A stretch of 42,439 nt of DNA from Chloroflexota bacterium (GCA_011192195.1 DUEH01000001.1:11559-53997); one strand, 5' to 3'. Shown: positions 4,400 to 42,439, counted from the first letter of the stretch. The notes: generated by a model not told the origin, from the sequence alone. Numbers and translations are program-made.

Positions 4400-4403
4400 A
4401 TTT

Positions 4404-5941: not shown

Positions 5942-5957
5942 AATTTACCGCAGGGAC

Positions 5958-6845: not shown

Positions 6846-6913
6846 ATAAAAAATTTATTGGAGATAAGCTGACCGCTGATGGCTGACAGCTTGTTTCACA
6901 AGGAGAATGATAA

Positions 6914-11554: not shown

Positions 11555-11577
11555 AATTTTAACACAATCAATGATAT

Positions 11578-11655
11578 GTCATTGCGAGGGCGCAACCCGA
11601 AGCAATCCCCCCCCGTTGTCGGCAGGAGATTGCTTCGTCTGCGGCTCGCAATGAC
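11578..11655. repeat. nested-hairpin repeat, family C copy 1 (GTCATTGCGAG ... CTCGCAATGAC)
   Basis: Outer arms are GTCATTGCGAG/CTCGCAATGAC and inner arms CGAAGCAATC/GATTGCTTCG. The same core occurs at 40153-40226. Confidence 0.8.
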
Positions 11656-11662
11656 AACGCAC

Positions 11663-11697
11663 AACTCGTAAATCGTAAATCCAAAATCGTAAATCAG
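11663..11697. repeat. period-7 tandem array (AACTCGT AAATCGT AAATCCA AAATCGT AAATCAG)
   Basis: Read directly. Confidence 0.8.
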
Positions 11698-21726: not shown

Positions 21727-23940
21727 TTACTCAAGTTTCCCCAATGCCCGCAGGACGCGCTCCGGGGTGAGAGGGAATTGGTCAAACCAGATGCCGGTGG
21801 CGTTGTGAACGGCGGCGGTGACGGCGGGAGCGTAGATCAGATAGGGCATTTCGGCCATTCCGCGCGCGCCATAAGGTCCTTCAGGGTGCGGGTCTTCCAC
21901 AATGATTGATTCCACCCGCTCCGGGATGTCTGAGATGCCGGGGATGAGATAGGTGCTGAGGTTGGGCGTCAGGATTTCGCCGTTTTTGGTCTGAAATTCT
22001 TCCAGAATGGTGTAGCCGTGCGCCTGCACAATGGCTCCTTCTATTTGCCCGATGACCTGTTCCGGGTTGATGGCTTTGCCCACATCATTGGCGCAGATGA
22101 CTCGCTGCACGGTAATGAAGCCGGTTTCCGTATCCACCGTAAGTTCTACCGTTTCGCACACGTAACCGTAGGCAAAGTTGGGCATACATTCGCCCGTTTC
22201 CGGGTCAAAGGTGGTGGTTTTGGGGGCGTAGTAGGTGTATTCCACCTTAACCGGGCGTTCTTCGTTCTGCCAGCGCTGCAAGGCTTCCTCTGCCGCGCCT
22301 TTAACGGCGTTTCCGGCCATAAAGGTCAGCCGAGAGGCCGATGCGCTGCCAGCGCTGTCGGCGTAGGCGGTGTCGCCGGCAACCAGAGTGATGCGGTCAA
22401 TGGGAATGTCCAGCGCTTCAGCGGCAATTTGGGTCATTGCGGTGTGATGTCCCTGCCCCACATCGGAACCAGAGATAGACAGCACCGCTTCCTCAATTTT
22501 CGCATCGCCCAGCAATTCAATTCCGGCCCAGCTATTTTCGGGATAGCCCAAACTAAAGCCAATATTTTTGAAGCCCAGTGTAATGCCTGTCCCCCTGGCG
22601 GTATCGCCAACGCCGTCCACTTCCGGGGCCAGCCAATAGCCGTCTTGCTGCGTCCATCCGGCGGCCAGAGCTGTTTTTTCCAGTACCGTTTTCAGGCTGA
22701 TGCCGCCCGGTATGGGCGTGCCGACGGTGAGCGGTTTTTCTTCGTCCAGCAGGTTTTTCATCCGAATTTCTACCGGATCCATTCCCAGCGCTTCGGCCAG
22801 TTTGTTCATCTGGCCTTCGGCAGCAAATTGGGCTTGCGGACCGCCAAAGCCCCTGAAAGCCCCGCCGGGGATGTTATTGGTGTAAACGGCAAAGGCGTCC
22901 ATTTTGGCGTGAGGCCAGTAGTAGGGGCCGCCAACCGTCATAATGGCGTTAGCCAATACTTTGTTGCTGGTGTACATATACGCGCCACCGTCGCTAACGA
23001 TTTTACTTTCAACGGCTACCAGCGTACCGTCTTGTTTAGCGCCCCATTTGGCTTGTATGGTCATTGGGTGACGTTTGCAGTGGCCGATGATCGATTCTTC
23101 GCGGCTCCAGACAATTTTTACCGGACGATTGACGCCCCGCTGTTGCAGCTTGTACACGGCCAGACCCAGAATGATCTGCACAGAGATGTCTTCTCTACCG
23201 CCAAATGCGCCGCCGATGGCGTCGTGAATGACGCGCACTTTTTCCGACGGCAGGGCCAAGGCGTGGGCTATTTGTTCTTGCTCTTCCCAGGCCCATTGAC
23301 CGGCGCAGGCAACGGCTATGCGGCCTTCATCGTCAATATAGGCGGTTCCCGCTTCCGGCTGCAAGTAGGCGTGTTCCTGCCAGGGCGTGTGATAGGTGTT
23401 TTCGATGATTATGTCACATTGCTCCCAGGCAGAATCGGTATCACCTCGCCGAATTTTGTCATGGGTGGCAATGTTGTCCGGGCAGTGAGGGTGAAGTTGG
23501 GGCGCGTCTTCTTCCATTGCCGCAAAGGGGTCGGTGACGGCGGGCAGGTCTTCGTATTCCACGTTGATCAAATCGCAGGCTTTGGCGGCAATTTTTTCGT
23601 TGACTGCCACCACTACGGCTATTTGATCGCCCACAAAGCGAGCCACATCCGCGCCCTCTTTGCTTGAACCCGGACCGCACAGTACCGGTTGGTCCGGCGT
23701 TTGCAAGCCGTATTCGTTTACCGGTACGTCTTTGGCCGTCAGCACAAGCACCACGCCGGGCAAGGCTTCGGCGGCGGCAGTGTCAATGCTGAGAATGCGC
23801 GTGTGGACTCGTTTGGCAAAGTGTACTTTTAGCCAGAATTGGTTGTTGTGGTTCTGATCGCCGGGGTAAAGTGTTTCGCCGGTCACTTTGCCCCAGGCGT
23901 CCAGCCGATTGATAGATTGACCGATGAACTTGTGCGTCAT
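21727..23940 (-). CDS. xanthine dehydrogenase / aldehyde oxidase family, molybdopterin-binding large subunit
   Basis: 737 aa. N-terminal Ald_Xan_dh-type region (GKVTGETLYPGD, VLTAKDVP), then FGGRE, GGAFRGFG and the C-terminal GARGMAEMP typical of the family. Confidence 0.85.
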   Translation of the reverse strand: MTHKFIGQSINRLDAWGKVTGETLYPGDQNHNNQFWLKVHFAKRVHTRILSIDTAAAEALPGVVLVLTAKDVPVNEYGLQTPDQPVLCGPGSSKEGADVARFVGDQIAVVVAVNEKIAAKACDLINVEYEDLPAVTDPFAAMEEDAPQLHPHCPDNIATHDKIRRGDTDSAWEQCDIIIENTYHTPWQEHAYLQPEAGTAYIDDEGRIAVACAGQWAWEEQEQIAHALALPSEKVRVIHDAIGGAFGGREDISVQIILGLAVYKLQQRGVNRPVKIVWSREESIIGHCKRHPMTIQAKWGAKQDGTLVAVESKIVSDGGAYMYTSNKVLANAIMTVGGPYYWPHAKMDAFAVYTNNIPGGAFRGFGGPQAQFAAEGQMNKLAEALGMDPVEIRMKNLLDEEKPLTVGTPIPGGISLKTVLEKTALAAGWTQQDGYWLAPEVDGVGDTARGTGITLGFKNIGFSLGYPENSWAGIELLGDAKIEEAVLSISGSDVGQGHHTAMTQIAAEALDIPIDRITLVAGDTAYADSAGSASASRLTFMAGNAVKGAAEEALQRWQNEERPVKVEYTYYAPKTTTFDPETGECMPNFAYGYVCETVELTVDTETGFITVQRVICANDVGKAINPEQVIGQIEGAIVQAHGYTILEEFQTKNGEILTPNLSTYLIPGISDIPERVESIIVEDPHPEGPYGARGMAEMPYLIYAPAVTAAVHNATGIWFDQFPLTPERVLRALGKLE

Positions 23941-24045: not shown

Positions 24046-24981
24046 TTACTCTTTCACCACTACCAGAAATTGCTCAACTTCAGCCAGAGTAGACGCTTCA
24101 AGCGCTATATCTGCCAGAGAGAGAAGTTGGTCTGAATTTAATTGATGAATACGGCCCTTGAGTTCAGCGCTTACCGGCGTAAATCGGTGTTCCAGAATGT
24201 ATAGCAACATTTTTTGTCGTTCTTGCTGTTGACCTTGCTCAAGACCTCGCTGTTGACCTTGCTCAAGACCTTGCTCAAGACCCTGCTCAAGACCCTGCTC
24301 AAGACCTTGCTCAAGACCTTTTTCAAGACCTTTTTCAAGAATTTGGTTGTACCAAGGTGATTCTCTTAAAATTGTCATATCCCACCTCATAATTTTGCTA
24401 ACTATTTTGGCGTCCAGAACAAAACTGGCAAAGAAAGCCAGTAAGGACTCCATTTCTGCCAGTTTTTCATCGTTGCGGAGTAAGGCGACGGCCTGTTTTA
24501 GAACTGATGGCTCCTGCCCGCCCTTCAGAATGGGAACAAAAGGCAATAACGGCGACAGGTTTTGCTCAAATACCAGATTAACGTCTTCTTCCCACAAATT
24601 TATCACCCGAAAATCTTGATGCGCTGTCAGCCCCATAAACTCATTGTGGTAGTTGTTGCCAAGTACCTTACCCGGTAATATGTTCACTACAACCGGATAG
24701 ATGTTGAGATCGTAATGCTCTTCGGCCAGAGCTGCATAAGCCCTTATTCGCCGGGCCATTCGTTTGTTCGGGCGTATTTGAATTTCATTGACGATCAAAA
24801 AGGTTCCATGTTGGGCAGATTTGACCTTGAGTAAAGCATCGTTCGCTCGGCTGATCCATTGAAACTCCTCCGACAAGAGTTCAATAGCCTCTACATCAGG
24901 ATTGCCGGTGAGCCAGCGCGCCCAGGCGGTTGGTTTCAGTTTGATCAGACGTTTGCTGCCGATATCGGCTGTTTTGGGCAT
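24046..24981 (-). CDS. Rpn-family recombination-promoting nuclease / putative transposase (PD-(D/E)XK) with a DUF4351-like C-terminus
   Basis: N-terminal GSKRLIKLKPTAWARWL, core D...NEIQIRPNKRM, a GLEQ repeat linker and C-terminal ILEHRFTPVSAELKGRIHQLNSDQLLSLADIAL. Confidence 0.65.
   Translation of the reverse strand: MPKTADIGSKRLIKLKPTAWARWLTGNPDVEAIELLSEEFQWISRANDALLKVKSAQHGTFLIVNEIQIRPNKRMARRIRAYAALAEEHYDLNIYPVVVNILPGKVLGNNYHNEFMGLTAHQDFRVINLWEEDVNLVFEQNLSPLLPFVPILKGGQEPSVLKQAVALLRNDEKLAEMESLLAFFASFVLDAKIVSKIMRWDMTILRESPWYNQILEKGLEKGLEQGLEQGLEQGLEQGLEQGQQRGLEQGQQQERQKMLLYILEHRFTPVSAELKGRIHQLNSDQLLSLADIALEASTLAEVEQFLVVVKE
24227..24346. repeat. 10 tandem 12-bp units (TCAAGACCTTGC and variants) inside the Rpn-family gene
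   Basis: Read directly. They encode (GLEQ/GLEK)n on the minus strand. Confidence 0.9.
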
Positions 24982-24993
24982 TGATGAGCGTCT

Positions 24994-26400
24994 CTATGAT
25001 GTTGTAGCAGTTTTCTCAAATGCTTTCAAGATGTTGTAGTAGCCGGTGCAGCGACACAGGTTTCCGGTTAATCCTTGCTTGATTTCACCGGGCGTGGGGT
25101 GTTCGTTTTCCAGCAGCAATGAAGCGCCGCTCATCAAAAAGCCGGGGGTGCAGTAACCGCATTGCACGGCGTCTTCCTTGATGAAGCTTTCTTGCAGCGG
25201 ATGTTCCATTAGCCCTTCTACGGTGATGATTTCGCTGCGGTGCGCTCTGGGCGCGGGAACCAGACAACTCATCACGGCCACGCCGTCTAGCAGCACGGTG
25301 CAAGCGCCGCATTCGCCTTCGGCGCAGCCTTCTTTGGTTCCGGTCAGGTAGAGGTCTTCACGCAACATCCGCAACAGGGTTTTATCGTTGGCGTGGCGGA
25401 CGATGACTGGCTCACCGTTGACAATGGAAACTATGGCCTCTTCGCCCTCTTCGGTGTGGGGGGTAGATTCGTTTTCCCGGTAGGGGTAATGACCGTCGGT
25501 GTCGCTCCAAAGCATAATGGGCGTGTCCGGGAGATGGTCTTTTTCCTCGCCGTTGCGCAGGGCGGTGAGGGCGAGGCGTGTGTAAACTCCCACTGAATAG
25601 CGGCGATAAGATGCGCTGCCGCGGAGGTCATCAATGGGTTTGGCGGCTTCGGCGGCTAGATTGGCAGCGTGGGTAATAATCTTGTCGCTGAACGATTGCC
25701 CAATCAGGGCGGCTTCGGCTTTGGGAGCGCGGATGATGGTGGGCGCAACACTGCCCAGCGTAATGCGAGCGTCTGAGATTTTGTCCCTATCAAAGGTAAG
25801 GACAACGGCTACGTTGATAATCGAAATAGCTTGAGCGCGGCGTAGTCCCAGTTTTTCAAATGTTCCCACCTGATTGGGCTGCATTGCCGGAAAGTGAATG
25901 TCTACCAGCATTTCCTGGGGAGTCAGCGCGGTCTTTCGTACGCCCAGAAAGAAGTCTTTTAGCGATAAGGTGCGTTCGCCGTCAACGCTGGCCAATGTGA
26001 CGCTGGCATCCAGAGCCATCATAGGGCTAATAGTGTCGTTGGCAGGCGAAGCGGTGATCAGGTTGCCAGCTACGGTTCCTCTATTACGAATTTGCGGTGA
26101 GCCGATCTGCCAGCACGCATTGACCAATGGAAAGGCGCGCTCTCGGCATAGCGTTGAGCCAATAACCTGATTGTGGGTGATAGTTGGCCCCAGGTGGATG
26201 CGCTCATCTTCGTCCAGCCAAATGGTATCCAGCCCGTTCAAGCGGCTGATGTCAATGACAGCTTCGGGGCGGCGAATGCCTTTTTCTATTTCCAGAATCA
26301 GGTCGGTTCCCCCGGCAATTATCCTGGCATTCGGTTGAAATTCGTCCAGCAGTTCCAGAGCTTGTTGTAGAGAAGTGGGAGTGTAGTAGTTTTTCCACAT
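24994..26400 (-). CDS. fused FAD-binding (CoxM/XdhB-like) and [2Fe-2S] (CoxS/XdhC-small-like) subunit of a molybdenum hydroxylase
   Basis: N-terminal IIAGGTDLILEI (FAD_binding_5-like). C-terminal GCAEGECGACTV, QCGYCTPGF and NLCRCTGY are the two 2Fe-2S Cys clusters. Confidence 0.85.
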   Translation of the reverse strand: MWKNYYTPTSLQQALELLDEFQPNARIIAGGTDLILEIEKGIRRPEAVIDISRLNGLDTIWLDEDERIHLGPTITHNQVIGSTLCRERAFPLVNACWQIGSPQIRNRGTVAGNLITASPANDTISPMMALDASVTLASVDGERTLSLKDFFLGVRKTALTPQEMLVDIHFPAMQPNQVGTFEKLGLRRAQAISIINVAVVLTFDRDKISDARITLGSVAPTIIRAPKAEAALIGQSFSDKIITHAANLAAEAAKPIDDLRGSASYRRYSVGVYTRLALTALRNGEEKDHLPDTPIMLWSDTDGHYPYRENESTPHTEEGEEAIVSIVNGEPVIVRHANDKTLLRMLREDLYLTGTKEGCAEGECGACTVLLDGVAVMSCLVPAPRAHRSEIITVEGLMEHPLQESFIKEDAVQCGYCTPGFLMSGASLLLENEHPTPGEIKQGLTGNLCRCTGYYNILKAFEKTATTS

Positions 26401-31931: not shown

Positions 31932-32753
31932 GTGCGTCAACTTGTCTTAACTCTTGCCGCTTTGCTCTTGCTAACGGCCTGTTCAGCTCAATCCATTGAG
32001 GTTCCGGTTGAAGTGACGGTGGTTGTGACGGCCACGCCCGACCCATCGGCAGCCCATAAGCCGGAAGAAGGTGTGATCACTATTCCGGCCGATGAACAGC
32101 GCAGCCAATGGTCCGCCCGACAGCCGGAAGAATACACCCAGCTATCGGCCCCGTTTTCCCTGAATGACAAAAAAGCTATCAAAGCCGGCAAAACCCTGTA
32201 TCGAGACAATAGCTGCCATTTGTGCCACGGAGCCAGAGGAAACGGCGAAGGACGCATCAGTCCCGGCCTGAATCCCCGTCCCATTGACCTGACCGACGGC
32301 GCATTGATGGCGCGCTTGGACGACGGCTACCTTTTTTGGCGCATCAGCCAGGGCGGTTCGCAGCCGCCTTTCCTGTCGGCGATGCCGGCTTGGGAAGATA
32401 TGTTGACGCAGGAGGAGCGCTGGCAGATCATTGTTTATTTGCGCAGCATTGCAGTTGAGCCGGCCGATACGCTCATCGGCGGCGTTGAAAAGCAGGTTGG
32501 CCTGCAATTGCTACAGGTCAGCGGCTGCCTGGGATGCCACCATTACAAAGGCAAAGGGGGGCGCGTTGGCCCGGAATTGAGCGACGTGGGGTCCCGACGT
32601 GACGTTGATTTCATTCGGGAATCGATCATCAACCCATCGGCGGTGGTGGCAGAGGATTACAGAGACCTGATGGCCCAGGATTACGCCGAGCGTATCAGCG
32701 AAGCAGATTTGGATATGCTGATTGATTTTCTGGCAGGCTCCGTGGAAAAATAA
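31932..32753 (+). CDS. dihaem c-type cytochrome lipoprotein
   Basis: Lipobox LLLLTAC and two CxxCH motifs (CHLCH, CLGCH). GTG start. Confidence 0.75.
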   Translation: MRQLVLTLAALLLLTACSAQSIEVPVEVTVVVTATPDPSAAHKPEEGVITIPADEQRSQWSARQPEEYTQLSAPFSLNDKKAIKAGKTLYRDNSCHLCHGARGNGEGRISPGLNPRPIDLTDGALMARLDDGYLFWRISQGGSQPPFLSAMPAWEDMLTQEERWQIIVYLRSIAVEPADTLIGGVEKQVGLQLLQVSGCLGCHHYKGKGGRVGPELSDVGSRRDVDFIRESIINPSAVVAEDYRDLMAQDYAERISEADLDMLIDFLAGSVEK

Positions 32754-32904
32754 CGGATGAGCGTCAAATAGCGTCATTCGTCAAAGGAAGCGCGCAACGC
32801 GACAAGCCGCACCTGTTATGCTCCTGGCGGGTCCATAGACCCGCGTCGCCGGTTCACGGAACCGGCTAGAGCGGAACTCATACTGATTCTTACAAACCGC
32901 GCAA

Positions 32905-34980
32905 ATGTTGTGGGGTAACACGACAATGGGTAGTTCTGAAGAGACAAATATCAGAAAGAACAAAGCCCGTTCCCGTCTTCGACTCAATCTGGGGGAGCGA
33001 TTGGCCCTTAGCATTGGGGTGATCATTGGCTTGACCAGCCTGGTCCTCTTTTTGTGGCTCTCACATCGCCAGGAAACGCAGGCGCTACGGATGGTTGAAG
33101 CTCAAGCTCAGGCATTGCTGACCGATATGCTGGTCACCCGAGAATGGGTATCCAGTTACGGCGGCGTGTGGACCGACCATCCGGGGGAAATTTACCTGGA
33201 AGAAAAAGACGGCTACTTTCTCAAATCGCCGGCGATGGTCACCAAGGAACTGTCGAATCTTTCGACCAACAAAGGTCTCTACGAATTCCACATCACCAGC
33301 CTCCATCTCAAAAATCCTGATAACGTCCCCGACGCTTTTGAACTGGAAGTCTTGCGCCAATTCGAAGAGGATACTACCCCTGTCAGCCGAGTTGAGGCGG
33401 TAGATGGAGAGCGCTTCTACCGCAAAATGATTCCGCTGCCCACCACAATCTCCTGCCTGGAATGTCACGCCGATCAGGGCTATCAAGTGGGCGATATTAG
33501 GGGCGGCCTCAGCGTGATGTTGCCTATGGCGGAAGTTGATCAGGCGCTAACCGCTAATCGGCAGGCTTTGATGTTGGCTATGGTTGCTATTGTTGCCTTG
33601 ATGGTTGGGCTGCTCTACTATTTTGTGCGACGAATCATTGTCGCCCCCATTGGCAAACTGACATCGGCTACCCAGACCATTGCGGCGGGAAATTACGATG
33701 TTTGCTGCGCTATCCACACCGGCGACGAGTTGGAAACGCTGTCCGATTCTTTCAATCAAATGGTGCAAAATCTAAAAAATTCTCACAACGCTCTGCAACA
33801 ACAAGTGGCTGAACGCACCAGAGAATTGACTGCCCTGTCAGAAATAGCTCTGACCATCAGTCGCTCTGAAGACCTGGAAACGGTATTGAAAGAAGGGCTG
33901 GGACAGGTTATCCAGGCTGCGGAAATGGATAGCGGCGCCGTCCACCTGCTGCAATCTAATGGCGCCCCTTATCTTGTCGCCAACAAAGATTTGCCCGTGT
34001 CCGTAACAAGCTGTATGGCCGATCAGGAAAAAGATAGTGGATTCCTGATTGGAATAAGTCAGGAAAAAATTCCCTTTTTTCATACCAGCCTTGTGAAAGG
34101 AACATGCCAATTTCAAGCCACCGGCGTGCCTTGCCCGGCTGCCGGCGCAGGCTACGGCGCGTTGGTTTCCGTCCCCCTCCGCTCCCGCAATCAGACATTG
34201 GGGACCTTGACACTATTATCCCACCAGGCATACGTTCCCTCTGACGAACTAATACAATTTATAACCTGTATGGGAAACCAGTTGGGCGCAGCCGTATCTA
34301 GCTCTCGCTACCACGAGCAGGTTGAACAACTGGCAACGGTAGAAGAACGCAGCCGCATTGGCCGGGAACTGCATGACAGTCTGGCTCAAACTTTGGGCTA
34401 TCTTAATCTGCAAACCCGCGCCGTCAGCGACCTGCTGCAAGTTGACCAGATACCCCAAGCCATTGACGAACTGAATGAGGCCCGTCAGGTAATCAAAGAT
34501 GCCTACGAAGAAATTCGTCACGCTATCTTTGACCTACGCTACACCACCCACCTCAACGGCGATTTTGGCGCCGCCCTGCGCGAATACCTTTACGAATACG
34601 CTCTCCAGAGCGCCATCCCCGTCGAATTATTGCCGGACGACTCAGCCGCCTGGCGCTTCCCCCCTGAAGTAGAGATCCAACTCCTGCGCATCATTCAAGA
34701 AGCCCTCACAAACGTCCGCCGCCACGCCGAGGCAGGCAAAGCGCGTATCAGCCTTATTCCCGGCGACGGCGTCAGCATCATCCGCATCGAGGATGACGGA
34801 CGCGGCATCCCCCCCCACCACGCCCGCCCCAAAGACCGCCCCCACTTTGGCCTGCAAATCATGCGCGAACGCGCCGAAAGCATCGGCGGCCAACTTACTG
34901 TTTTCCAGAGTGAATGGGGAGGCGCGGTAGTGAAGATTAGCCTGCCCAACGCCTATGACAAGGAGCAGGTGGGCAGGTGA
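32905..34980 (+). CDS. sensor histidine kinase: DUF3365 (c-type haem) - HAMP - GAF - HisKA_3 - HATPase_c
   Basis: N-terminal TM. DUF3365-like LKNPDNVPDAFE...CLECHADQGYQVGDIRGGLSV contains a CxxCH. HAMP (ELETLSDSFNQMV). H-box ERSRIGRELHDSLAQTL. The ATPase region includes RIEDDGRGIP. The exact start is uncertain. Confidence 0.8.
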   Translation: MLWGNTTMGSSEETNIRKNKARSRLRLNLGERLALSIGVIIGLTSLVLFLWLSHRQETQALRMVEAQAQALLTDMLVTREWVSSYGGVWTDHPGEIYLEEKDGYFLKSPAMVTKELSNLSTNKGLYEFHITSLHLKNPDNVPDAFELEVLRQFEEDTTPVSRVEAVDGERFYRKMIPLPTTISCLECHADQGYQVGDIRGGLSVMLPMAEVDQALTANRQALMLAMVAIVALMVGLLYYFVRRIIVAPIGKLTSATQTIAAGNYDVCCAIHTGDELETLSDSFNQMVQNLKNSHNALQQQVAERTRELTALSEIALTISRSEDLETVLKEGLGQVIQAAEMDSGAVHLLQSNGAPYLVANKDLPVSVTSCMADQEKDSGFLIGISQEKIPFFHTSLVKGTCQFQATGVPCPAAGAGYGALVSVPLRSRNQTLGTLTLLSHQAYVPSDELIQFITCMGNQLGAAVSSSRYHEQVEQLATVEERSRIGRELHDSLAQTLGYLNLQTRAVSDLLQVDQIPQAIDELNEARQVIKDAYEEIRHAIFDLRYTTHLNGDFGAALREYLYEYALQSAIPVELLPDDSAAWRFPPEVEIQLLRIIQEALTNVRRHAEAGKARISLIPGDGVSIIRIEDDGRGIPPHHARPKDRPHFGLQIMRERAESIGGQLTVFQSEWGGAVVKISLPNAYDKEQVGR

Positions 34981-35050
34981 GAAAGTGAGCAGGTGAGCAG
35001 ATAGCATCTTCCCGCCTGCTCACTTTCTCACTTTCTTACCTGCCCACCTC
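34965..35050. repeat. period-7 array (CAGGTGG GCAGGTG AGAAAGT GAGCAGG TGAGCAG) with an inverted partner
   Basis: The left arm contains the kinase stop codon. The right arm is CCTGCTC ACTTTCT CACTTTC TTACCTG CCCACCT. Confidence 0.8.
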
Positions 35051-35178
35051 CCCCCGCGCCTCCATAAGAACTACGCCAACCTAGTCCTTCCGGTTAGTTG
35101 CAAAATAACAATCTTGAACCATAGACAGTAAATATTGTTTGGGTGTAGCATGCATGATGAATGGATGGGTAGGTTGTA

Positions 35179-35213
35179 GTGTTGCGTGAAGTGCGAAGCA
35201 CTTCACGCAACAC
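35179..35213 (+). promoter_or_regulatory. perfect 16-bp inverted repeat upstream of the Rieske gene (operator or 5'-UTR hairpin)
   Basis: GTGTTGCGTGAAGTGC-gaa-GCACTTCACGCAACAC. No T-run follows. It ends 54 nt before the start codon. Confidence 0.4.
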
Positions 35214-35266
35214 GAACGCTAACTCAATCCAAAAACGCAAATGACAAAATTTCACAGGAGGAGAAT

Positions 35267-35758
35267 ATGTCATCACAAGAATCGCAAGCCCCCCCCACGA
35301 CGACCCGCCGCAAATTTATGCAAACGGTCATCGCCACATTAGGGGGGATCATCACCGCCGGATTTGCCATTCCGGCCGTTGGCTACGTAGTAGGTCCGGC
35401 GCTGCAAGAGAAGGTAGAGGCCTGGTTTCAGGTGGGAACCGCCAGCAAAATCCCCGTTGGCGAGCCGACTCTCTTGAAAATCAGCATAGAACGGAAAAGC
35501 GGCTGGATAGTAGACACTCAGGAACACGCCTATTACGTCTACACCGAAGACGGGCAGAACTATCAGGCTGTGTCCAATGTCTGCACCCACCTGGGCTGCC
35601 GAGTGCGCTGGATTGAGGACCAGGAAATTTTCTTCTGCCCCTGCCACAACGCCAGCTTTGCCAAAAATGGCGATGTACTCGACGGCCCGCCGCCGCGCCC
35701 TCTGGACAAAGCAGAACTCAAAATTGAAGACGATCAGATTTACATAAAGGGAGGTTGA
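35267..35758 (+). CDS. Rieske [2Fe-2S] subunit of a cytochrome bc/b6f-type complex, Tat-exported
   Basis: The ATG follows AGGAGG. Twin-arginine TTTRRKFMQ. Cluster boxes CTHLGCRV and CPCHNASF. Confidence 0.85.
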   Translation: MSSQESQAPPTTTRRKFMQTVIATLGGIITAGFAIPAVGYVVGPALQEKVEAWFQVGTASKIPVGEPTLLKISIERKSGWIVDTQEHAYYVYTEDGQNYQAVSNVCTHLGCRVRWIEDQEIFFCPCHNASFAKNGDVLDGPPPRPLDKAELKIEDDQIYIKGG

Positions 35759-35759
35759 T

Positions 35760-36416
35760 ATGGCAGCAATAGGCGATTGGTTTGATGATCGATTGGGGTG
35801 GCGCGGGGTATGGGAGACCATATTTGCCCGCAAAATCCCCAAAGTCAATTGGTTTTACACTCTGGGCAGCGCCACCCTCTTTACGGCTATTAGCCAGGGC
35901 ATCACCGGCATTCTGCTCACCCTGTACTACGTCCCCACTCCGGACCACGCCTGGGACAGCGTAGCCTACATTATGTACGAGCTTCCCTTTGGCTGGTTCA
36001 TCAGAGGGGTACACCACTGGGGATCCAGCGTCATGGTGGTGTTGGTCTTCCTGCATATGCTCCGAGTGGTCTTTATGGGATCCTACAAATTCCCCCGCGA
36101 GTTCACCTGGATCACCGGCTTATTATTGCTGCTCCTCACTCTGGGCTTTGGCTTCACTGGCTACCTGCTTCCCTGGGACCAAAAATCGTACTGGGCCACT
36201 ACTGTTGGCACTCGCATTGCCGAAGTTACCCCGGTGATAGGCCACTTCACTCTAAAGGTGATGCGCGGCGGAGAGGAATTGAGCGCCCTCACTCTGGCGC
36301 GTTTCTTTGGCGCCCATGTCTGGGTGTTGCCTATCTCGCTTATTGTGTTGATCAGTTCTCACATGTACCTGATCCTCCGACACGGCATTACAGCGCCGCC
36401 CAAGAAAGGTGAGTGA
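35760..36416 (+). CDS. cytochrome b (b6-type, N-terminal four-helix half)
   Basis: Haem ligand pairs are H-x13-H (HHWGSSVMVVLVFLH) and H-x14-H (HVWVLPISLIVLISSH). The 14-residue spacing is the b6/Firmicute type. Confidence 0.85.
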   Translation: MAAIGDWFDDRLGWRGVWETIFARKIPKVNWFYTLGSATLFTAISQGITGILLTLYYVPTPDHAWDSVAYIMYELPFGWFIRGVHHWGSSVMVVLVFLHMLRVVFMGSYKFPREFTWITGLLLLLLTLGFGFTGYLLPWDQKSYWATTVGTRIAEVTPVIGHFTLKVMRGGEELSALTLARFFGAHVWVLPISLIVLISSHMYLILRHGITAPPKKGE

Positions 36417-36417
36417 A

Positions 36418-38532
36418 ATGAAAAAACAAGAGCAAGAACAATACCTGAAAGATTATAAGAAAGCCAAAGAAAAGGGCATCCCTTTCTTTCCCGATGTCAT
36501 TTTCAAGGACACCATCGCCGCCTTCGTGATATTCCTTGTTCTGATCGCGCTGGCCGTTTTCATTGGCGCGCCTTTGGAGGAACAGGCCAACCCTCAGGAT
36601 ACCAGCTACACTCCTAAACCGGAATGGTACTTCCTCTTCCTCTTCCAGGCCCTAAAATACTTTCCGGGCAACCTGGAGGTCATTGGCGCGGTCATCATCC
36701 CCACGCTGGTGGTCGTTGCGCTGTTCCTCTTACCATTTCTGGATCGCAGTCCCAAGCGCCACCTGATGAGCCGCCCCATCGCCACTATTGTCACCATTCT
36801 GTCCGTGGTATTGATTGTCGGCTTGACCGTTGTTGCCCAACTGGAAGCCCCACCCCCCGCCGAAGCCCACGTTACGGATTTAGCGGCCACGCTCTACGAG
36901 CAGAACTGCTCCAGTTGTCACGGTCAGGTCGTGGAGGCAGGCACCGCCAATTTACACGATGTCATTGTCAGCGGCGGGCACGAAGGGATGCCGGCCTGGG
37001 GCGGTGACTTGAGCGCGGATGAAGTTGACCTTCTGGTTGGCTACATCTCCTCGCCCCAAGGGAACATTGTCTACATTCGCGAGTGCGCCGGTTGCCACGA
37101 AAACGAAATACCGATAGTAGAAAAGCCTATGGAATTGATAGCTATTCTGGACCAAGGCCCGGACCATCCCCTTCACGCCGATACGAAAAAGATACCTTAT
37201 TGGACGGAAGAACTCTCGGGCGGCGAGCGCAACGCTCTACTCAACTTCCTGGCCGCGCCCGACGGTCAGCGGCTCTACACCATCAACTGCGCCGGATGTC
37301 ACGGTATGGGGATTGACCACGTTGCCGAAACAGAAGACCTGGAAGCCGAACTGCTTGCAGTGATCATCCAGGGCGAACACAACCGCGACATGCCCGCTTT
37401 CGACGATACCCTGTCTGAAGTTGAGATTGGCATACTGACCGATTACGTGATGGACCCGGCTAAATCGCCCGCTGGCGCGTCCCTTTTCCAGGCCAATTGT
37501 TCTTCCTGCCACCACGACAGAGTACCCACCTCAGACAAAAAATCCGAGGCCAAAAAAGCGATTTCCGCCGGCGGTATGCATGAAGTAATGCCCGCCTGGG
37601 GCGACGTGCTTACCCCGGAACAGTTAGACGCTTTGGTCGGCTACGTCGCTGAACTGGTGGAAGGAGTTGGCGCCGGTAAAGGCGGCGCTCTCTACCGGGA
37701 TAACTGCGCCCTGTGTCACGGACCCTTCGGCGAAGGCGGACCCAACCCCGGCCAACCCGGCGACGTTATCGCCCCCATCAGCACCTCCGAATACCTGAGT
37801 ACCCGCAACGACTTGACCCTGAAGCAGATTATCTCAATGGGTCAGCCAAACTTCGGTATGTCGCCCTTTGGTTCGGCTCACGGCGGACCGTTGGAAAATG
37901 AAGACATTGATGCCATTGTGGCCCTGATGCGTGCCTGGGAAGCCAACCCGCCGGTAGACCTACCGCCTGAAATTGACGCTGGCATTGTCGCTTATGGCGG
38001 CGAAGAAGTCTTCCTGAACATCTGCGCCAACTGTCACGGACCCGAAGGCAAAGGGGACATCGGCCCGGCCCTTAACTCGGACGATTTCCGCTCTGCCTAC
38101 GATGACGACGACACTTTTGCCGTCGTTGCCGACGGACATGCAGGCACAGTGATGATTGGCTGGGGCAACATCCTCACCGAAGAACAAATTTGGGACGTGA
38201 TTGACTACATGAGTATCTGGGGCGGCCCGCAGCCCGGCGAAGAGATTTTGTTCGCCGAACACATCCAGCCCCTCTTTGACCGCAAATGCTTCCGCTGTCA
38301 CGGCGATAAGCTGGATTCAGGCGACTGGCGCAGCGACACTTACGAAGCCATAATGGAAAGCGGCAAAAACGCGCCCAACATCATCCCCGGCGATCCGGAC
38401 AGCAGTTTGCTCATCCAAAGACTGCTCAACAAGCCATCCGGCGGCGGACAAATGCCCCCCGCCAGGATGATGAACGAGCGTCAAATTCAGTGGGTGATTG
38501 ACTGGGTAGCAGAGGGAGCGCCGAATAATTAA
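36418..38532 (+). CDS. subunit IV (cytochrome b C-terminal half) fused to seven c-type cytochrome domains
   Basis: N-terminal PFFPD...PEWYFLFLFQALKYFP (PetD/QcrB-C like) with 3 TM helices. Seven CxxCH motifs follow (CSSCH, CAGCH, CAGCH, CSSCH, CALCH, CANCH, CFRCH). The last domain resembles a PSCyt1-type domain (IIPGDPDSSLL). The ATG at 36418 lies 2 nt after the cyt b stop; the alternative GTG is at 36409. Confidence 0.8.
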   Translation: MKKQEQEQYLKDYKKAKEKGIPFFPDVIFKDTIAAFVIFLVLIALAVFIGAPLEEQANPQDTSYTPKPEWYFLFLFQALKYFPGNLEVIGAVIIPTLVVVALFLLPFLDRSPKRHLMSRPIATIVTILSVVLIVGLTVVAQLEAPPPAEAHVTDLAATLYEQNCSSCHGQVVEAGTANLHDVIVSGGHEGMPAWGGDLSADEVDLLVGYISSPQGNIVYIRECAGCHENEIPIVEKPMELIAILDQGPDHPLHADTKKIPYWTEELSGGERNALLNFLAAPDGQRLYTINCAGCHGMGIDHVAETEDLEAELLAVIIQGEHNRDMPAFDDTLSEVEIGILTDYVMDPAKSPAGASLFQANCSSCHHDRVPTSDKKSEAKKAISAGGMHEVMPAWGDVLTPEQLDALVGYVAELVEGVGAGKGGALYRDNCALCHGPFGEGGPNPGQPGDVIAPISTSEYLSTRNDLTLKQIISMGQPNFGMSPFGSAHGGPLENEDIDAIVALMRAWEANPPVDLPPEIDAGIVAYGGEEVFLNICANCHGPEGKGDIGPALNSDDFRSAYDDDDTFAVVADGHAGTVMIGWGNILTEEQIWDVIDYMSIWGGPQPGEEILFAEHIQPLFDRKCFRCHGDKLDSGDWRSDTYEAIMESGKNAPNIIPGDPDSSLLIQRLLNKPSGGGQMPPARMMNERQIQWVIDWVAEGAPNN

Positions 38533-38537
38533 ACAAC

Positions 38538-38591
38538 AGTGAAAAATGAATAGTGAATAATTTTTCACTATTCATTTTTCATTATTCATTG
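38538..38591. repeat. period-7 array (AGTGAAA AATGAAT AGTGAAT) with an inverted partner; likely terminator hairpin
   Basis: Read directly. The right arm is TTTTTCA CTATTCA TTTTTCA TTATTCA. Confidence 0.8.
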
Positions 38592-38610
38592 ATTTAGCGC
38601 GGGTTTTCCA

Positions 38611-39270
38611 ATGACTGAAGAAGCGATCAAAATCCTGGTAGTGGACGATCACCCCCTCTTTCGCAAGGGAGTCGTCCATATGCTTCAGGGTGAAACGGAC
38701 ATGGAGATCATCGGCGAGGCGGGCGAAGGTGAAACAGCCCTGAATATGACCCGCGAACTGATGCCGGACATAACCCTGATGGACGTTTCCATGCCCGGCT
38801 GGGATGGCATAAAGGCCACCAGACGGATCATGGAGGAATTTCCCTCAGCGCGCATTGTGATGCTCACTGTCAACGACGATGACCGCTCTCTCTTCAACGC
38901 CATCAAAGCGGGCGCGCGGGGCTACCTCTTCAAAAATCTGGAGCCGGAAGACCTGATCGCGATGGTGCGGGGCGTCTTTCGGGGCGAGGCGCCCATCTCT
39001 CGCATCACGGCCAATCGCATTTTGCAGGAATTTGGCCGTCTTGCCCGCCATGAAACAAAACCCTCGGTGGCTGACCTTAGCCCCCGCGAGAAGGAAATCC
39101 TCAAGTTGGTGGCCAAAGGCGATTCCAACAAAGAAATCGCCAGAGAATTGATCATTACCGAATACACCGTCAAGAACCATTTGCGCAATATCCTGGAAAA
39201 ACTTCACGTCCGCAATCGGGTAGAAGCCGCCGCCATCGCCGTACGAGAGGGGCTGGTGGAAAACAACTAA
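38611..39270 (+). CDS. NarL/FixJ-family response regulator (REC + LuxR-type HTH)
   Basis: ILVVDDHPLFRKG, phospho-acceptor region ITLMDVSMPGWDG, and C-terminal LSPREKEILKLVAKGDSNKEIA...VKNHLRNILEKL. Confidence 0.9.
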   Translation: MTEEAIKILVVDDHPLFRKGVVHMLQGETDMEIIGEAGEGETALNMTRELMPDITLMDVSMPGWDGIKATRRIMEEFPSARIVMLTVNDDDRSLFNAIKAGARGYLFKNLEPEDLIAMVRGVFRGEAPISRITANRILQEFGRLARHETKPSVADLSPREKEILKLVAKGDSNKEIARELIITEYTVKNHLRNILEKLHVRNRVEAAAIAVREGLVENN

Positions 39271-39283
39271 AAACTAAATAAAA

Positions 39284-39445
39284 CACCTCCGAGCCTTATT
39301 GTCTAAGGGACATCGTCCTACGGCAACTGGGCCGATCCTCACCGCGGTGAGGGATTGCCACAAACAGGCGATTACAGGCAGGCGTAGAAATGCGCCGGCC
39401 TCCCGAAGGTCCCCAATTGGGGATACTGACTTGGAAAGGAGGCTT
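39284..39445 (+). promoter_or_regulatory. candidate Moco (molybdenum/tungsten cofactor) riboswitch aptamer
   Basis: The closing helix is CCTCC (39286-39290) / GGAGG (39438-39442). CCUCCGAGCC, GAUUGCCAC (39353-39361), GGCCUCCCG (39397-39405) and GGAAAGGAGG (39433-39442) match my recollection of the RF01055 core. Internal hairpins lie at 39337-39352 and 39410-39423. This has not been verified with a covariance model. Confidence 0.55.
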
Positions 39446-39463
39446 ACAGATGACAATTCTTCT

Positions 39464-39497
39464 GTCGCCAGCTTTCCAAGCTGGCGATTTTTTTTTT
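39464..39497 (+). terminator. intrinsic terminator forming the expression platform of the leader
   Basis: Stem TCGCCAGC (39465-39472) / GCTGGCGA (39480-39487) followed by T10 (39488-39497). It ends 12 nt before the next start codon. Confidence 0.8.
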
Positions 39498-39508
39498 GGA
39501 GATTGGAG

Positions 39509-40042
39509 ATGGCTTCTCTTACTTTACTCACCGGCCCACGCGGCGCGGGTAAAACAAGTTTATGTCTTCATAAGGCCGAAAAGGCGCGGGCAGACGGTCA
39601 GACTGTGGCCGGGTTGCTTTCTCCGGCTCGCTTTGAGCGTAATTACAAAGTTGGCATTGACGCGCTAGACCTCCGCAGCGGACAGCGCCGTCCGCTGGCT
39701 CAACGCCGCAGCAAAGCGACAGGCGGCGCGCCCTTCGACCTTTCGGCTTCGCTCAAGGCAGGCTTTGCTCACCTGCGGCAGCTTGAAACCAGCAACTGGC
39801 GCTTCGACCCCGACGCGCTGGCTTGGGGAGCAGAAGTATTGCGGCAGGCAACGCCCTGCGACCTACTGATAATAGACGAACTGGGACCGCTGGAGTTTGA
39901 GCGCAGAGGGGGCTGGTTAGTCGCACTGGATATCATTACTCAAGGAGACTACCGCCACGCGCTGGTCGTTGTGCGCCCGGAATTGTTAGAAGTGGCTCAA
40001 AATCGCTGGCCCTGGGCGGAAATTTGGCAGGTGGGCGGGTGA
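39509..40042 (+). CDS. small P-loop NTPase (DUF2478/THEP1-like, possibly MobB-like)
   Basis: The ATG follows GGAG. Walker A LLTGPRGAGKTS and Walker B DLLIIDELGPLE. 177 aa. The longer ORF from 39299 would be a translation of the leader RNA. Confidence 0.65.
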   Translation: MASLTLLTGPRGAGKTSLCLHKAEKARADGQTVAGLLSPARFERNYKVGIDALDLRSGQRRPLAQRRSKATGGAPFDLSASLKAGFAHLRQLETSNWRFDPDALAWGAEVLRQATPCDLLIIDELGPLEFERRGGWLVALDIITQGDYRHALVVVRPELLEVAQNRWPWAEIWQVGG

Positions 40043-40127
40043 GCAGGTAAGTGCAAGTAGTTTTTGCTCCAAGCGGTTCCGCGAACCGCGTCTTGGACGT
40101 ACCGACTCCGCCGGGTCTGTCCTGACC

Positions 40128-40258
40128 CAGGGCTGTTCAGTTCTGCGGTTATGTCATTGCGAGGCGCATTTTGCCGAAGTAATCTCCGGCCTGCAATGCG
40201 GAGATTGCTTCGTTCCTCGCAATGACACGCACAGAATCTTTAGAACTGAACAGCCCTG
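40128..40258. mobile_element. 131-bp MITE with perfect 17-bp TIRs and an 8-bp target-site duplication, carrying a family C hairpin core
   Basis: TIRs are CAGGGCTGTTCAGTTCT (40128-40144) and its exact reverse complement (40242-40258). They are flanked by direct TCCTGACC at 40120-40127 and 40259-40266. The internal GTCATTGCGAGG...CCTCGCAATGAC lies at 40153-40226. Confidence 0.8.
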
Positions 40259-40329
40259 TCCTGACCGAAGACGCCGAAGAATCACGAACCCGGCTAGAGC
40301 ATCAGACACAAATAACAAATGACGATTCA

Positions 40330-41790
40330 ATGATTGAACTCAACCGCCTTTCAATACAATACGGCAGCGTTAGCGCTCTGGAAGAAACCTCTCTGACTAT
40401 CCAGCCGGGAGAATTTGTGTTGATTACCGGACCGTCCGGCTGCGGTAAAACCACTCTGGGGCGAGCTATCACCGGTCTTATTCCGCACGCCATACCGGCT
40501 GTCGTCAACGGTTCAGTAGTGGTGAATGGGCTGGAAACCGGAGCGCATTCGCTGCCGACGCTGGCGCAAAACGCGGGAATGGTCTTTCAAAACCCGGCCT
40601 CGCAACTCTTTCATCTCACCGTGCAGGATGAAGTGGCTTTTGGCCCGCATAACCTGGGATTGCCTGAAGACGAAGTGAGCCGGCGCGTCGAATGGGCGCT
40701 GACCATTACCGGGCTGAATGATCTGGAGCAACGCTCCCCCCCCGAACTATCGGGCGGTCAACAGCAGCGAGTAGCCATTGCGGCGGCGCTGTCTATGCGT
40801 CCCCGGGTACTGGTACTCGATGAACCTATGGCTTCGCTCGATGTGCCCGGCGTTCGTCAGGTGATGTCGGCGCTGGCTGACCTAAACCGGCGTCACGGCA
40901 TCACCATCATCCTGATCGAACATCGTCTGGCCGAGGCGGCTCGTTTGGCCGGGCGCGTCATCCTGATGGATCGGGGGCGGATCGTCGCTGATGGTCCCCC
41001 CGATCGCGTTTTGGCTGACCGTCCCTTGCTGCGCCGTCTCGGCATCCGTCGCCCCACCAGTGAAGCGCCAATGAATTGGGAGCGATTGCTTCAATCCAAC
41101 GGTCGCGCATCCCGCGGATACGCACTGCCTTCAACGTCTCCCCTGTTGGAACTGCGCGACGTGCAGGCCGGCTTCTCGCGTTGTCCGGTGTTAACGGGCG
41201 TCAACCTTGAGCTCTACCCCGGTGATTTCGTGGCCCTCGTCGGCGACAACGGCGCGGGCAAAAGCACTCTGGGGCTGGTTGCGGCGGGATTACTCAAGCC
41301 GCAGCGCGGCTCGGTCTCTTTTAATGGAGGCCAGCGCTCACTCCCCGGTCTTGATGTGGGGCTGCTCTTTCAAAATCCGGTACACCAACTCTTCACCGAC
41401 CTGGTAGATGATGAAGTCGCCTTTGGTCCGCGCAACTACGAGCGCTTCGCCTCCGCCGATCACGAGCAAATTCTAAGTCAGGCCGATCTGCTCTCACTGC
41501 GCAACCGCGCTCCAATGACCCTCTCGGCCGGCCAGCAGCAACGACTGACCCTGGCCGCAACCCTGTCGCTGCGCCCAAAACTGGTTATCCTCGACGAACC
41601 GACAATGGGCCAGGATTGGAGGCATTTGCAGCAACTTATGGCCTTTGTGAACGAACTCAACCGGCAGGGTACTGCTATTTTGCTGATCACGCACGATTAT
41701 AAACTGGTTCATCACTACGCTCGACGGGTAGCGCTTTTGCGTCAGGGGAAGATTGTGGCAGAAGGGATTCCAAAGGATGAAGGATGGTAA
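40330..41790 (+). CDS. fused double ABC ATPase of an ECF-type transporter (EcfA-EcfA' / YkoD/CbiO-like)
   Basis: Two complete cassettes: GPSGCGKTT...LSGGQQQRVAIA...LVLDEP and GDNGAGKST...LSAGQQQRLTLA...VILDEP. I placed the start at MIELNRL because the ORF-track start at 40222 lies inside the MITE. Confidence 0.8.
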   Translation: MIELNRLSIQYGSVSALEETSLTIQPGEFVLITGPSGCGKTTLGRAITGLIPHAIPAVVNGSVVVNGLETGAHSLPTLAQNAGMVFQNPASQLFHLTVQDEVAFGPHNLGLPEDEVSRRVEWALTITGLNDLEQRSPPELSGGQQQRVAIAAALSMRPRVLVLDEPMASLDVPGVRQVMSALADLNRRHGITIILIEHRLAEAARLAGRVILMDRGRIVADGPPDRVLADRPLLRRLGIRRPTSEAPMNWERLLQSNGRASRGYALPSTSPLLELRDVQAGFSRCPVLTGVNLELYPGDFVALVGDNGAGKSTLGLVAAGLLKPQRGSVSFNGGQRSLPGLDVGLLFQNPVHQLFTDLVDDEVAFGPRNYERFASADHEQILSQADLLSLRNRAPMTLSAGQQQRLTLAATLSLRPKLVILDEPTMGQDWRHLQQLMAFVNELNRQGTAILLITHDYKLVHHYARRVALLRQGKIVAEGIPKDEGW

Positions 41791-41915
41791 CTACTAACCC
41801 CCCTCCAAACCTCCCCCCGAAATCAAGGGGAGGCTTTTAACTTCCCCCGTCAACGGGGGGAGAGCCTGCCCCGCTTTACCGGGTATTGAGGGGGGTAGGT
41901 GAGTAGTTACGAAGG
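41787..41915. repeat. family B repeat, copy 2
   Basis: Aligns with 5815-5941. TIR-like ends GTAACTACT (41787-) and AGTAGTTAC (-41910). The left end overlaps the ATPase stop codon TAA. Confidence 0.85.
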
Positions 41916-41926
41916 ATGAAAAAACA

Positions 41927-42439
41927 ATGAAATTCAACACCAGAGAACTCGTTACCTTAGCCGTTTTTGGGGCGCTGTGGGGCGTGGTTGAAGTTAGCCT
42001 CGGCTCGTTGCTGCACGTGCTGAATGTGCCGCTGACCGGTTTGTTTATGACGGCGGTCGGCATTGCCATTGCCCTGGTCGGACGATTGTACGTACCCAAA
42101 CCCGGGGCAACCGTCTTCATCGGGCTGATTGCCGCCCTGCTCAAGATGTTCAGCTTGGGGGGCATCGTCATCAACCCTATGATCGGCATCATCGCCGCGT
42201 CGCTGTTGGCCGAAATTGTTCTCACCGCTTTTCGCCGTCCGCGACGACTGGCTTTTGTTCTGGCGGGCGGACTGGCTGTTTTGTGGACGCTGGTTCATCC
42301 CTTTTTAACCCAAAGCTTCCTGGCTGGACGCGGCGTTCTGGTCATCTGGCTGGATTTGCTGGACGAAGGGATACGCTTGTTTGGGCTAAATTCAAACGCG
42401 GCCTGGGTCATCGTTGCCGCGTTGGTTTTGTTGCGCTTG
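41927..42439 (+). CDS. polytopic membrane protein, candidate ECF S-component (3' end lies outside the window)
   Basis: I translated this myself because it is open to the window end and so is absent from the ORF track. MKFNTRELVTLAVFGALWGVVEVSLG... resembles the N-termini of ECF substrate-capture subunits. At least 5 hydrophobic helices are present. Confidence 0.5.
   Translation, partial: MKFNTRELVTLAVFGALWGVVEVSLGSLLHVLNVPLTGLFMTAVGIAIALVGRLYVPKPGATVFIGLIAALLKMFSLGGIVINPMIGIIAASLLAEIVLTAFRRPRRLAFVLAGGLAVLWTLVHPFLTQSFLAGRGVLVIWLDLLDEGIRLFGLNSNAAWVIVAALVLLRL

Follow-up and report, generated by a model that had tools for sequence, protein, structure and literature searches.

The end of a 42,439-nt stretch of DNA from a Chloroflexota bacterium (GCA_011192195.1 DUEH01000001.1:11559-53997; the whole stretch is called the window below) carries an operon in which a riboswitch for the molybdenum cofactor (Moco) precedes the genes of an energy-coupling factor (ECF) transporter, and which very probably encodes a dedicated, Moco-repressed importer within the Moco economy of the bacteria that possess it. 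As for its cargo, we favour a pterin of the Moco pathway over molybdate or tungstate, a preference that we hold tentatively and short of an even chance. Riboswitch-controlled ECF importers are a standard bacterial route to vitamin salvage, but we know of none for Moco, and the only importers of molybdenum or tungsten known to us are ModABC, TupABC and WtpABC. An earlier note on this DNA had read the locus as a molybdenum- or tungsten-cofactor-responsive ECF module, serving either salvage or metal uptake; the riboswitch and the conservation of the operon support the module itself, while a small lipoprotein encoded in the operons of relatives tilts the choice left open there towards a pterin. 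The conserved lipoprotein and a tight linkage to MoeA, MobB, MobA and FmdE are additions to that reading. The components of the system found in the window are the following:

39275-39457, + strand: Moco riboswitch aptamer (RF01055, P3-containing type), a match to the Rfam covariance model
39430-39480, + strand: antiterminator, in which CUUGGAAAG (39430-39438) pairs with CUUUCCAAG (39472-39480)
39464-39497, + strand: intrinsic terminator with an 11-bp stem (6 G-C pairs; 39464-39488), a 3-nt loop and T10 (39488-39497)
39509-40042, + strand: THEP1-like P-loop NTPase of 177 aa, encoded by the first gene of the operon (PF03266)
40330-41790, + strand: fused EcfA-EcfA' ATPase, 486 aa, with two ATP-binding cassette (ABC) domains (TIGR04520, TIGR04521, PF00005)
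41927-42439, + strand: S component of an ECF transporter, representing a new family; the window contains the first 171 residues of about 196 and cuts the gene at its end

The leader RNA is a bona fide member of RF01055, of the P3 (Moco) type. A scan of the 42-kb window with Rfam returned a match to the full model (positions 1-135) that scores 58.3 bits (E 1.4e-11), the gathering score being 36, and RF01055 was the only family at gathering level across the window; the cobalamin, thiamine pyrophosphate (TPP) and NiCo riboswitch classes are thereby rejected, none reaching that level anywhere in it. In a permissive scan of 39200-39560 all other families stayed far under their gathering scores, and the sole overlap with the terminator was sub-threshold noise from small RNA and microRNA families. 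The Moco motif had been recognized in the earlier note from four short strings, all of which are present; the closing helix CCTCC/GGAGG described there is P1, in which CCUCC (39286-39290) pairs with GGAGG (39438-39442). Its account of a structured leader with a strong terminator and T10 also holds, with two corrections: the leader, measured from the stop codon of the preceding response-regulator gene (39268-39270) to the ATG of the NTPase gene (39509), is 238 nt long and not 214, and the terminator stem has 11 bp and not 8. The fold of the leader is 5.5 standard deviations more stable than those of shuffled sequences.

Relatives of the operon were found by family alignment among GTDB species representatives, and the best 80 of 160 were analysed; they come from species other than that of the window, nearly all of them Chloroflexota/Anaerolineae metagenome-assembled genomes (MAGs), and the operon counts given below are taken over the loci with enough flanking sequence (73 or 76). 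A covariance model built in this analysis (R1), trained on 15 Rfam-verified aptamers, detected 74 aptamers in 83 sources, all of them on the + strand, and scored that of the window at 124 bits. Across the 74 homologues 90% of the cells are paired and double (compensatory) changes are present at 27 of 37 pairs, a level attained by none of 500 shuffles, and controls with slid pairing fall to 32-48% paired. The conserved core, arranged in the P1-P5 architecture, comprises CUCCGA, a GAAA loop, CCUCCCG and GGAAAGGAG; P3 of the window aptamer is aligned with a 32-nt insert, and the P3 pairs 88-91/136-139 covary (alignment A2). Presence of P3 marks the Moco-type RNAs, which are associated with genes for Moco and not for the tungsten cofactor (Tuco) (PMC2408646), so the type of this riboswitch argues against a tungstate-specific role.

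The aptamer and the terminator are connected by an alternative pairing. The aptamer's 3' core GGAAAGGAGG, which runs through CUUGGAAAGGAGG (39430-39442), is overlapped by CUUGGAAAG, and the first nine bases of CUUGGAAAGGAGG are the exact reverse complement of CUUUCCAAG, which makes up the 5' arm and the loop of the terminator. Terminator and antiterminator are mutually exclusive. Folded alone, the terminator has an energy of -17.6 kcal/mol (z -5.0), and in the minimum-energy structure of the full leader P1 is closed and the terminator formed together; with the 5' strand of P1 omitted, 39426-39500 adopts the antiterminator fold (-24.8 kcal/mol), in which the terminator is absent. Since the 9-bp antiterminator uses the 3' core of the aptamer, we infer that the leader acts as an OFF switch, in which bound Moco leads to termination. 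Strict terminators are found in 47 of the 74 homologous leaders and in most of the others the hairpin is kept but its U tract is weaker; the loops of these hairpins read UCUCC or UUUCC, complementary to GGAGA or GGAAA of the aptamer. In a few leaders the ATG directly follows GGAG, which appears to be a translational version of the switch, where P1 would mask the ribosome-binding site as in the case of E. coli moaA (PMC2408646). The same P3-containing aptamer family and the same OFF logic are known from the riboswitch of E. coli moaABCDE and other RF01055 members (Regulski et al. 2008, PMC2408646), and transcription-terminator platforms have already been described for some of them. The associations reported there are, however, with molybdate ABC transporters, Moco biosynthesis and Moco enzymes, whereas here the riboswitch heads an ECF transporter operon, and Chloroflexota, to which the present host belongs, are not among the phyla listed.

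Two further observations concern the leaders of relatives. The terminator hairpin is nearly identical in sequence (CTCGCCAG...CTGGCGAG) across many species (e.g. about 4380-4405 in locus L058), a degree of conservation that exceeds the need of a terminator alone. One locus (L075) has tandem Moco aptamers (4522-4651 and 4794-4927) before the same ECF operon, the first of them with its own terminator.

The proteins encoded behind the riboswitch are those of an ECF transporter. The fused EcfA-EcfA' ATPase, named as such in the earlier note, exceeds the cut-offs of both TIGR04520 (372.7 bits; cut-off 315) and TIGR04521 (369.3 bits; cut-off 330) and matches PF00005 twice. Its true start is likely at 40330; the upstream ATG at 40222 was ruled out, because it sits inside an inverted-repeat insertion (described below) and because the ATPases of relatives have 483-494 aa. 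The membrane protein encoded next has 356 detected homologues and only marginal Pfam matches (PF09819 at 30.8 bits against a cut-off of 25.2, and PF09605, also marginal); most of its relatives fall under the Pfam threshold, no NCBIfam match was obtained for the window protein or for its relatives, and a profile search with the family retrieved no PDB sequence at E<=10, including 5edl. On the other hand, an AlphaFold (AF2) model of a 94%-identical full-length relative (P0003; mean predicted confidence, pLDDT, 88) has seven helices and its top Foldseek match, over the whole length, is 5edl (YkoE; TM 0.66, probability 1.0, 18% identity), followed by TmRibU. As the YkoE fold is matched without any match among PDB sequences, the model identifies the protein as an S component of a family of its own, whose fold is of the vitamin type (YkoE, RibU) and not of the CbiM/NikM type, and which contains two invariant basic residues, R53 and K73. 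The earlier description of this protein as S-component-like is borne out, and it groups with no S component whose specificity is known.

The T component, which according to the same note is not visible because the window ends, is encoded further downstream in relatives: a CbiQ-type EcfT gene is present in 76 of 76 loci (the window itself ends in the S gene), and the A-A', T and S modules are all present and co-conserved in these 76. The EcfT of the related locus L004 scores 43.7 bits on PF02361, and that of L058 exhibits the Arg-containing coupling-helix motifs LRMRG and AEARAF. A tblastn map gives the conserved order as riboswitch, NTPase, EcfAA', S, small lipoprotein and EcfT. The gene set thus recurs behind Moco aptamers in other species, as had been suggested for checking: the riboswitch precedes it on the coding strand in 69 of the 73 testable loci, at a median of 75 nt ahead of the first gene, and with Rfam itself RF01055 was found at gathering level upstream on the coding strand in 14 of the 18 loci scanned. 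The NTPase gene is present in 62 of 73 related operons. The closest relatives, L004 (S component 94% identical) and L005 (88%), share the upstream synteny of the window (Rieske protein, cytochrome b and multihaem cytochrome c, histidine kinase, response regulator), and their downstream genes encode the CbiQ-type EcfT, NapD and a molybdopterin oxidoreductase.

Side by side with this regular order, about seven loci (L013, at 6382-6987, L008, L015 and about four others) carry a gene for an S-adenosylmethionine-dependent methyltransferase (PF13649) between EcfAA' and S. Copies of the operon are also found in MAGs labelled Zixibacteria, Actinomycetota, Desulfobacterales and Sulfomarinibacteraceae (L014, L036, L043, L054, L067), which could reflect horizontal transfer or mis-binning, most of the related genomes being MAGs.

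The component that bears most directly on the substrate is the small lipoprotein; 68 of 76 loci encode it between S and T. It comprises 145-155 aa with a basic-hydrophobic N terminus, and its single cysteine is the invariant one of the lipobox. The protein scores above the Pfam threshold of PF00174, the Moco-binding domain of enzymes of the sulfite oxidase (SUOX) family, covering only positions 56-160 of the 169 of the profile, and hence without the hairpin that bears the molybdenum-ligating cysteine; an active SUOX enzyme was therefore rejected, the domain being truncated and devoid of the Cys ligand. Its AlphaFold model (pLDDT 86, above 95 over the folded domain) has as its best PDB matches the PruR structures 7kom, 7kos and 7kp2, as well as 7rkb with bound neopterin (E 1e-6 to 3e-5, TM 0.65-0.73, root-mean-square deviation 2.5-3.1 A), which originate from Vibrio vulnificus, Agrobacterium, V. 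cholerae and, for the neopterin complex, Klebsiella; the Moco domains of SoxC, YedY and sulfite oxidases come next. PruR is a periplasmic, cysteine-less protein of degenerate SUOX fold that binds monapterin or neopterin in the site homologous to that of Moco, with the pterin sandwiched by Y104 and W160 and hydrogen-bonded by N102, and pterin is bound at that site in all characterised members of this fold (PMC11194511). In a profile alignment to 7kom the L-N-D-Y segment of PruR, which contains the N-x-Y pterin contacts, lies opposite an invariant D-G-[F/Y] of the lipoprotein, so that, as judged from the alignment, the stacking aromatic residue (F/Y as the equivalent of Y104) is apparently kept and the asparagine replaced by an invariant aspartate. 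Also invariant are R131, the arginine of the SUOX 'RLVVPG' motif, and R144.

The lipoprotein resembles PruR of A. tumefaciens, Vibrio and Klebsiella in being a small, secreted, stand-alone protein with a degenerate SUOX fold and no molybdenum-ligating cysteine. Unlike the soluble PruR, it is lipid-anchored, lacks both the P-W motif and the second stacking Trp, has Asp in place of the pterin-binding Asn, and retains the SUOX-type Arg of the RLVVPG motif; it also differs in occurring in Chloroflexota and not in Proteobacteria and in having an ECF partner instead of the diguanylate cyclase/phosphodiesterase DcpA. No DcpA-type GGDEF/EAL partner was found among the loci, where the genes accompanying the lipoprotein are throughout those of ECF S and T. 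Among small SUOX-fold proteins it represents a third kind, intermediate between PruR and the enzymes. Pterins are the sole class of ligand known for the fold.

The first protein of the operon, the NTPase, scores 51.2 bits on PF03266 (cut-off 23.9) and has a Walker A motif GPRGAGKT and a Walker B motif LLIIDELG, while its score on the NCBIfam equivalog PRK13695 (45, cut-off 156) is far below the threshold, and it is therefore classified as a member of the THEP1/NTPase_1 family rather than as an equivalog. The earlier note was right about a 177-aa P-loop NTPase, but of the two families that it offered, MobB is ruled out by the lack of a PF03205 match, a separate MobB being encoded nearby in relatives, and DUF2478 (PF10649) is reached by the whole protein at 26.2 bits against 22.3 with no single stretch passing. 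A PDB sequence search gave generic P-loop matches and human NTPCR at E 0.003 only, and a homologue search returned only the label 'nucleoside-triphosphatase THEP1', with no functional lead. One may speculate that the protein acts as a cargo chaperone, or as a kinase on an imported dephospho-precursor.

The neighbourhood of the operon belongs to molybdenum-cofactor metabolism. All other open reading frames (ORFs) of the 80 loci were clustered and the commonest clusters annotated, which yielded MobB in 30 loci (by tblastn), an FmdE-like protein with a zinc ribbon in 27, MoeA in 14, MobA in 8 and MoaA in 5, along with a ferredoxin-like protein (29), a radical-SAM protein (24), a NarJ/TorD-like chaperone (23) and TatC (22); molybdopterin oxidoreductases, some of them exported, are frequent near the operon. 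The neighbouring MobB, encoded downstream of the operon, is genuine (144 bits). At loci of the L059 type the FmdE-like, MobB and MoeA genes follow that of EcfT without gaps, and for this reason they are probably on the same transcript. A second Moco riboswitch lies a few kilobases past the first operon in three loci (L027, 11625-11761; L057, 11621-11757; L058, 11996-12132), downstream of EcfT-MobB-MobA-MoaA and before an FmdE-like/zinc-ribbon gene and ModA. Given the Moco genes and ModA near the operon, the hosts make Moco de novo and at least some of them own a conventional molybdate importer too; in these three loci, where a separate Moco riboswitch precedes ModA, there would be no need of another importer for molybdate. 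A narrow scan for ModA, with patterns too specific to inform on co-occurrence, found close relatives in 6 species or loci, three of them already known.

Taken together, these data suggest the following mechanism. The P3-containing Moco riboswitch would sense the cellular level of Moco; when Moco binds, P1 would close and GGAAAGGAGG be sequestered, so that the hairpin with T10 could terminate transcription and the operon be switched off, and when Moco is scarce, the free CUUGGAAAG would pair with the 5' arm of the terminator, permitting read-through and synthesis of the importer. The latter would be a group I ECF system composed of the THEP1-like NTPase, EcfA-EcfA', the YkoE-fold S component, the PruR-like membrane-anchored lipoprotein and EcfT. 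It may supply late Moco assembly, carried out by MoeA, MobA/B and FmdE, and the genes for these proteins are in many cases fused to the operon. Molybdopterin, cyclic pyranopterin monophosphate (cPMP), Moco itself or a breakdown product are the candidate substrates; the lipoprotein would catch the pterin outside the cell and pass it to the S component, in a cofactor salvage parallel to those of the FMN (flavin mononucleotide) riboswitch with RibU and the TPP riboswitch with YkoEDC or ThiT. Our preference for a pterin stems from the putative PruR-like capture protein, from the vitamin-type S fold, from the residence of ModA under a separate Moco riboswitch, and from the fact that cofactor riboswitches generally control de novo genes and an ECF salvage transporter alike.

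Close parallels are YkoEDC (TPP riboswitch; 5edl) and RibU (FMN riboswitch), with which the present system shares the joint encoding of A-A', T and S and the YkoE fold, and would also share the repression of uptake by the cofactor's own riboswitch, de novo genes being found under the same riboswitch class elsewhere. Unlike them, it possesses a new S family (18% identity to YkoE, with no significant sequence match), a different riboswitch and two extra conserved genes, those of the THEP1-like NTPase and the extracytoplasmic lipoprotein. ECF systems are normally defined by the absence of a substrate-binding protein, and the transporter fits the features of group I except for the candidate binding protein encoded alongside. 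With ModABC, TupABC and WtpABC it has in common the regulation by Moco/Tuco riboswitches and the clustering with moeA, mobB and moaA, but these are type I ABC importers with the binding proteins ModA, TupA and WtpA, to which nothing here is homologous. Among dedicated ECF systems with extra small or extracytoplasmic components, CbiMNQO and NikMNQO (with NikK or NikL) carry cations; the ATPase described here scores on cbiO models as well, while the S component is not similar to CbiM or NikM. In summary, the components are neither orthologues of YkoE or PruR, nor a SUOX enzyme, nor MobB. A literature search, of incomplete coverage, so that a prior description is possible, revealed no connection of either the Moco riboswitch or molybdenum with ECF transport or with the present S family.

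Several points weigh against a pterin importer as here proposed. No sigma-70-like promoter was predicted on the + strand at 38611-39290 of the window, because only about 15 nt separate the end of the NarL-type response-regulator gene (38611-39270) from aptamer P1; the operon may be read through from the upstream cytochrome bc/two-component operon (31932-39270) or have a promoter within the response-regulator gene. The window's own lipoprotein and EcfT genes would lie past its end and are deduced from the closest relative, L004. The P-W hairpin of PruR is deleted from the lipoprotein and the likely position of the second stacking Trp is not conserved, while its SUOX-type basic residues could, to judge by sequence, equally well bind an oxyanion. 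The lipoprotein is absent from 8 of 76 operons, hence dispensable, and in L005 (8534-8767) and L006 (585-818) its gene is a remnant coding for the 77 C-terminal residues. As the carrier genomes possess genes for making Moco de novo, their hosts have no strict need of salvage. Moco and molybdopterin are very oxygen-labile, and we know of no bacterial uptake of either. Finally, linkage to MoeA, MobB and FmdE is also typical of tungstate and molybdate ABC operons, i.e. of tup and mod clusters.

The oxyanions provide the best-surviving alternative, according to which the same ECF importer carries molybdate or tungstate as an oxyanion counterpart of CbiMNQO and NikMNQO, with the lipoprotein acting like the extra components of the NikK/NikL type and its invariant arginines binding the anion. 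We regard both this substrate and this role of the lipoprotein as a serious possibility, with roughly one chance in three. Moco riboswitches commonly control molybdate transporters (PMC2408646), and the frequent fusion of the operon to the genes of MoeA, which inserts molybdate, MobB and FmdE resembles the mod and tup clusters. The invariant basic residues of the lipoprotein (R131, R144) and the S component (R53, K73), the sulfite/sulfate pocket that the SUOX fold has too (as stated in PDB titles), the fragility of the pterins and the dispensability of the lipoprotein are all compatible with an anion, and the restriction of close ModA relatives to 6 species in the narrow scan would mean that most hosts may lack that type of ModA. 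Nevertheless, oxyanions are not known as substrates of ECF systems, the S component is similar to YkoE and RibU (vitamin type) and not to CbiM and NikM (metal type), the proteins closest in structure to the lipoprotein bind pterins, ModA is placed under its own Moco riboswitch in three loci and, for tungstate in particular, the aptamer is of the P3 type. On these grounds the Moco-pathway pterin is retained as the favoured substrate.

That the system serves no import at all is improbable. In this case the lipoprotein would sense or handle extracellular pterins in the manner of PruR, whose homologues function in signalling and not in transport (PMC11194511), or would serve the maturation of extracytoplasmic molybdoenzymes, with the ECF-like proteins as accessories; the common occurrence of TatC, NarJ/TorD-like chaperones and exported molybdenum oxidoreductases among the neighbours, and an NTPase that has no known role in ECF transport, would agree with such a function. 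Against it speak the canonical A-A', T and S modules conserved together in all 76 loci, the lack of a DcpA-type partner and the predicted repression by Moco, which matches the logic of supply; moreover, the characterised ECF systems are, as far as is known, all importers. A YkoEDC-like importer of thiamine, hydroxymethylpyrimidine (HMP) or another ordinary vitamin, to which the Moco element would be incidental, is very improbable: it could explain the PF09819 score of the window protein, the JGI label 'ABC-type thiamin/hydroxymethylpyrimidine transport system permease' on several relatives and YkoE as the best fold match, but there is no TPP riboswitch, RF01055 stands before the operon in 69 of 73 loci, most relatives are under the Pfam threshold and none has an NCBIfam match, 5edl is not matched by sequence, and the neighbours are Moco genes and not thi genes.

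If a pterin is indeed the substrate, this would be the first importer of a pterin or Moco precursor and the first ECF system to include a binding protein, and intermediates of the Moco pathway would be exchanged in anaerobic microbial communities. That both firsts apply, i.e. bacterial uptake of a molybdopterin-type pterin and an ECF transporter with an extracytoplasmic capture protein, seems to us a reasonable prospect, though not an even one. If an oxyanion is carried instead, the operon would encode the first oxyanion ECF transporter. A 2026 review calls the route of pterins across bacterial membranes unknown (PMC13259868), and nematodes are reported to obtain Moco from their bacterial diet (PMC7849362). 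The operon, which recurs in many species, is a concrete candidate, and the soluble domain of its lipoprotein can be expressed for ligand tests; it adds ECF transporters to the gene classes of the Moco riboswitch regulon and gives a lead to the function of a PruR-like protein outside Proteobacteria and of a THEP1-like NTPase.

The spacers of the operon in the window contain two inverted-repeat elements, neither of which is part of the system:

40117-40266, no strand: nested inverted-repeat element of about 131 nt, flanked by an 11-bp direct repeat CTGTCCTGACC and similar to miniature inverted-repeat transposable elements (MITE-like)
41781-41920, no strand: second intergenic inverted-repeat element, between the ATPase and S genes

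The former, in the spacer between NTPase and ATPase, is the source of the spurious ATG at 40222; a core of 75% similarity is found at 11575-11663 of the window, and L033 and L017 have similar TGTCATTGCGAGG palindromes. In L005 the genes for NTPase and ATPase overlap, with no spacer at all, and the sole other assembly with an identical NTPase, which is from the same organism (L001), breaks at the repeat element, 241 nt past the gene. The latter has a copy of 91% identity at 5805-5944, 36 kb away, and is a dispersed repeat. Elsewhere in the window, the molybdenum hydroxylase operon mentioned in the earlier note was recovered as genes of the xanthine-dehydrogenase type at 21727-23940 and 24994-26400, on the minus strand; the two subunit genes are separated by a gene for a DUF4351 protein (24046-24981), and an ORF for a DDE transposase (19868-21340) is located near them.

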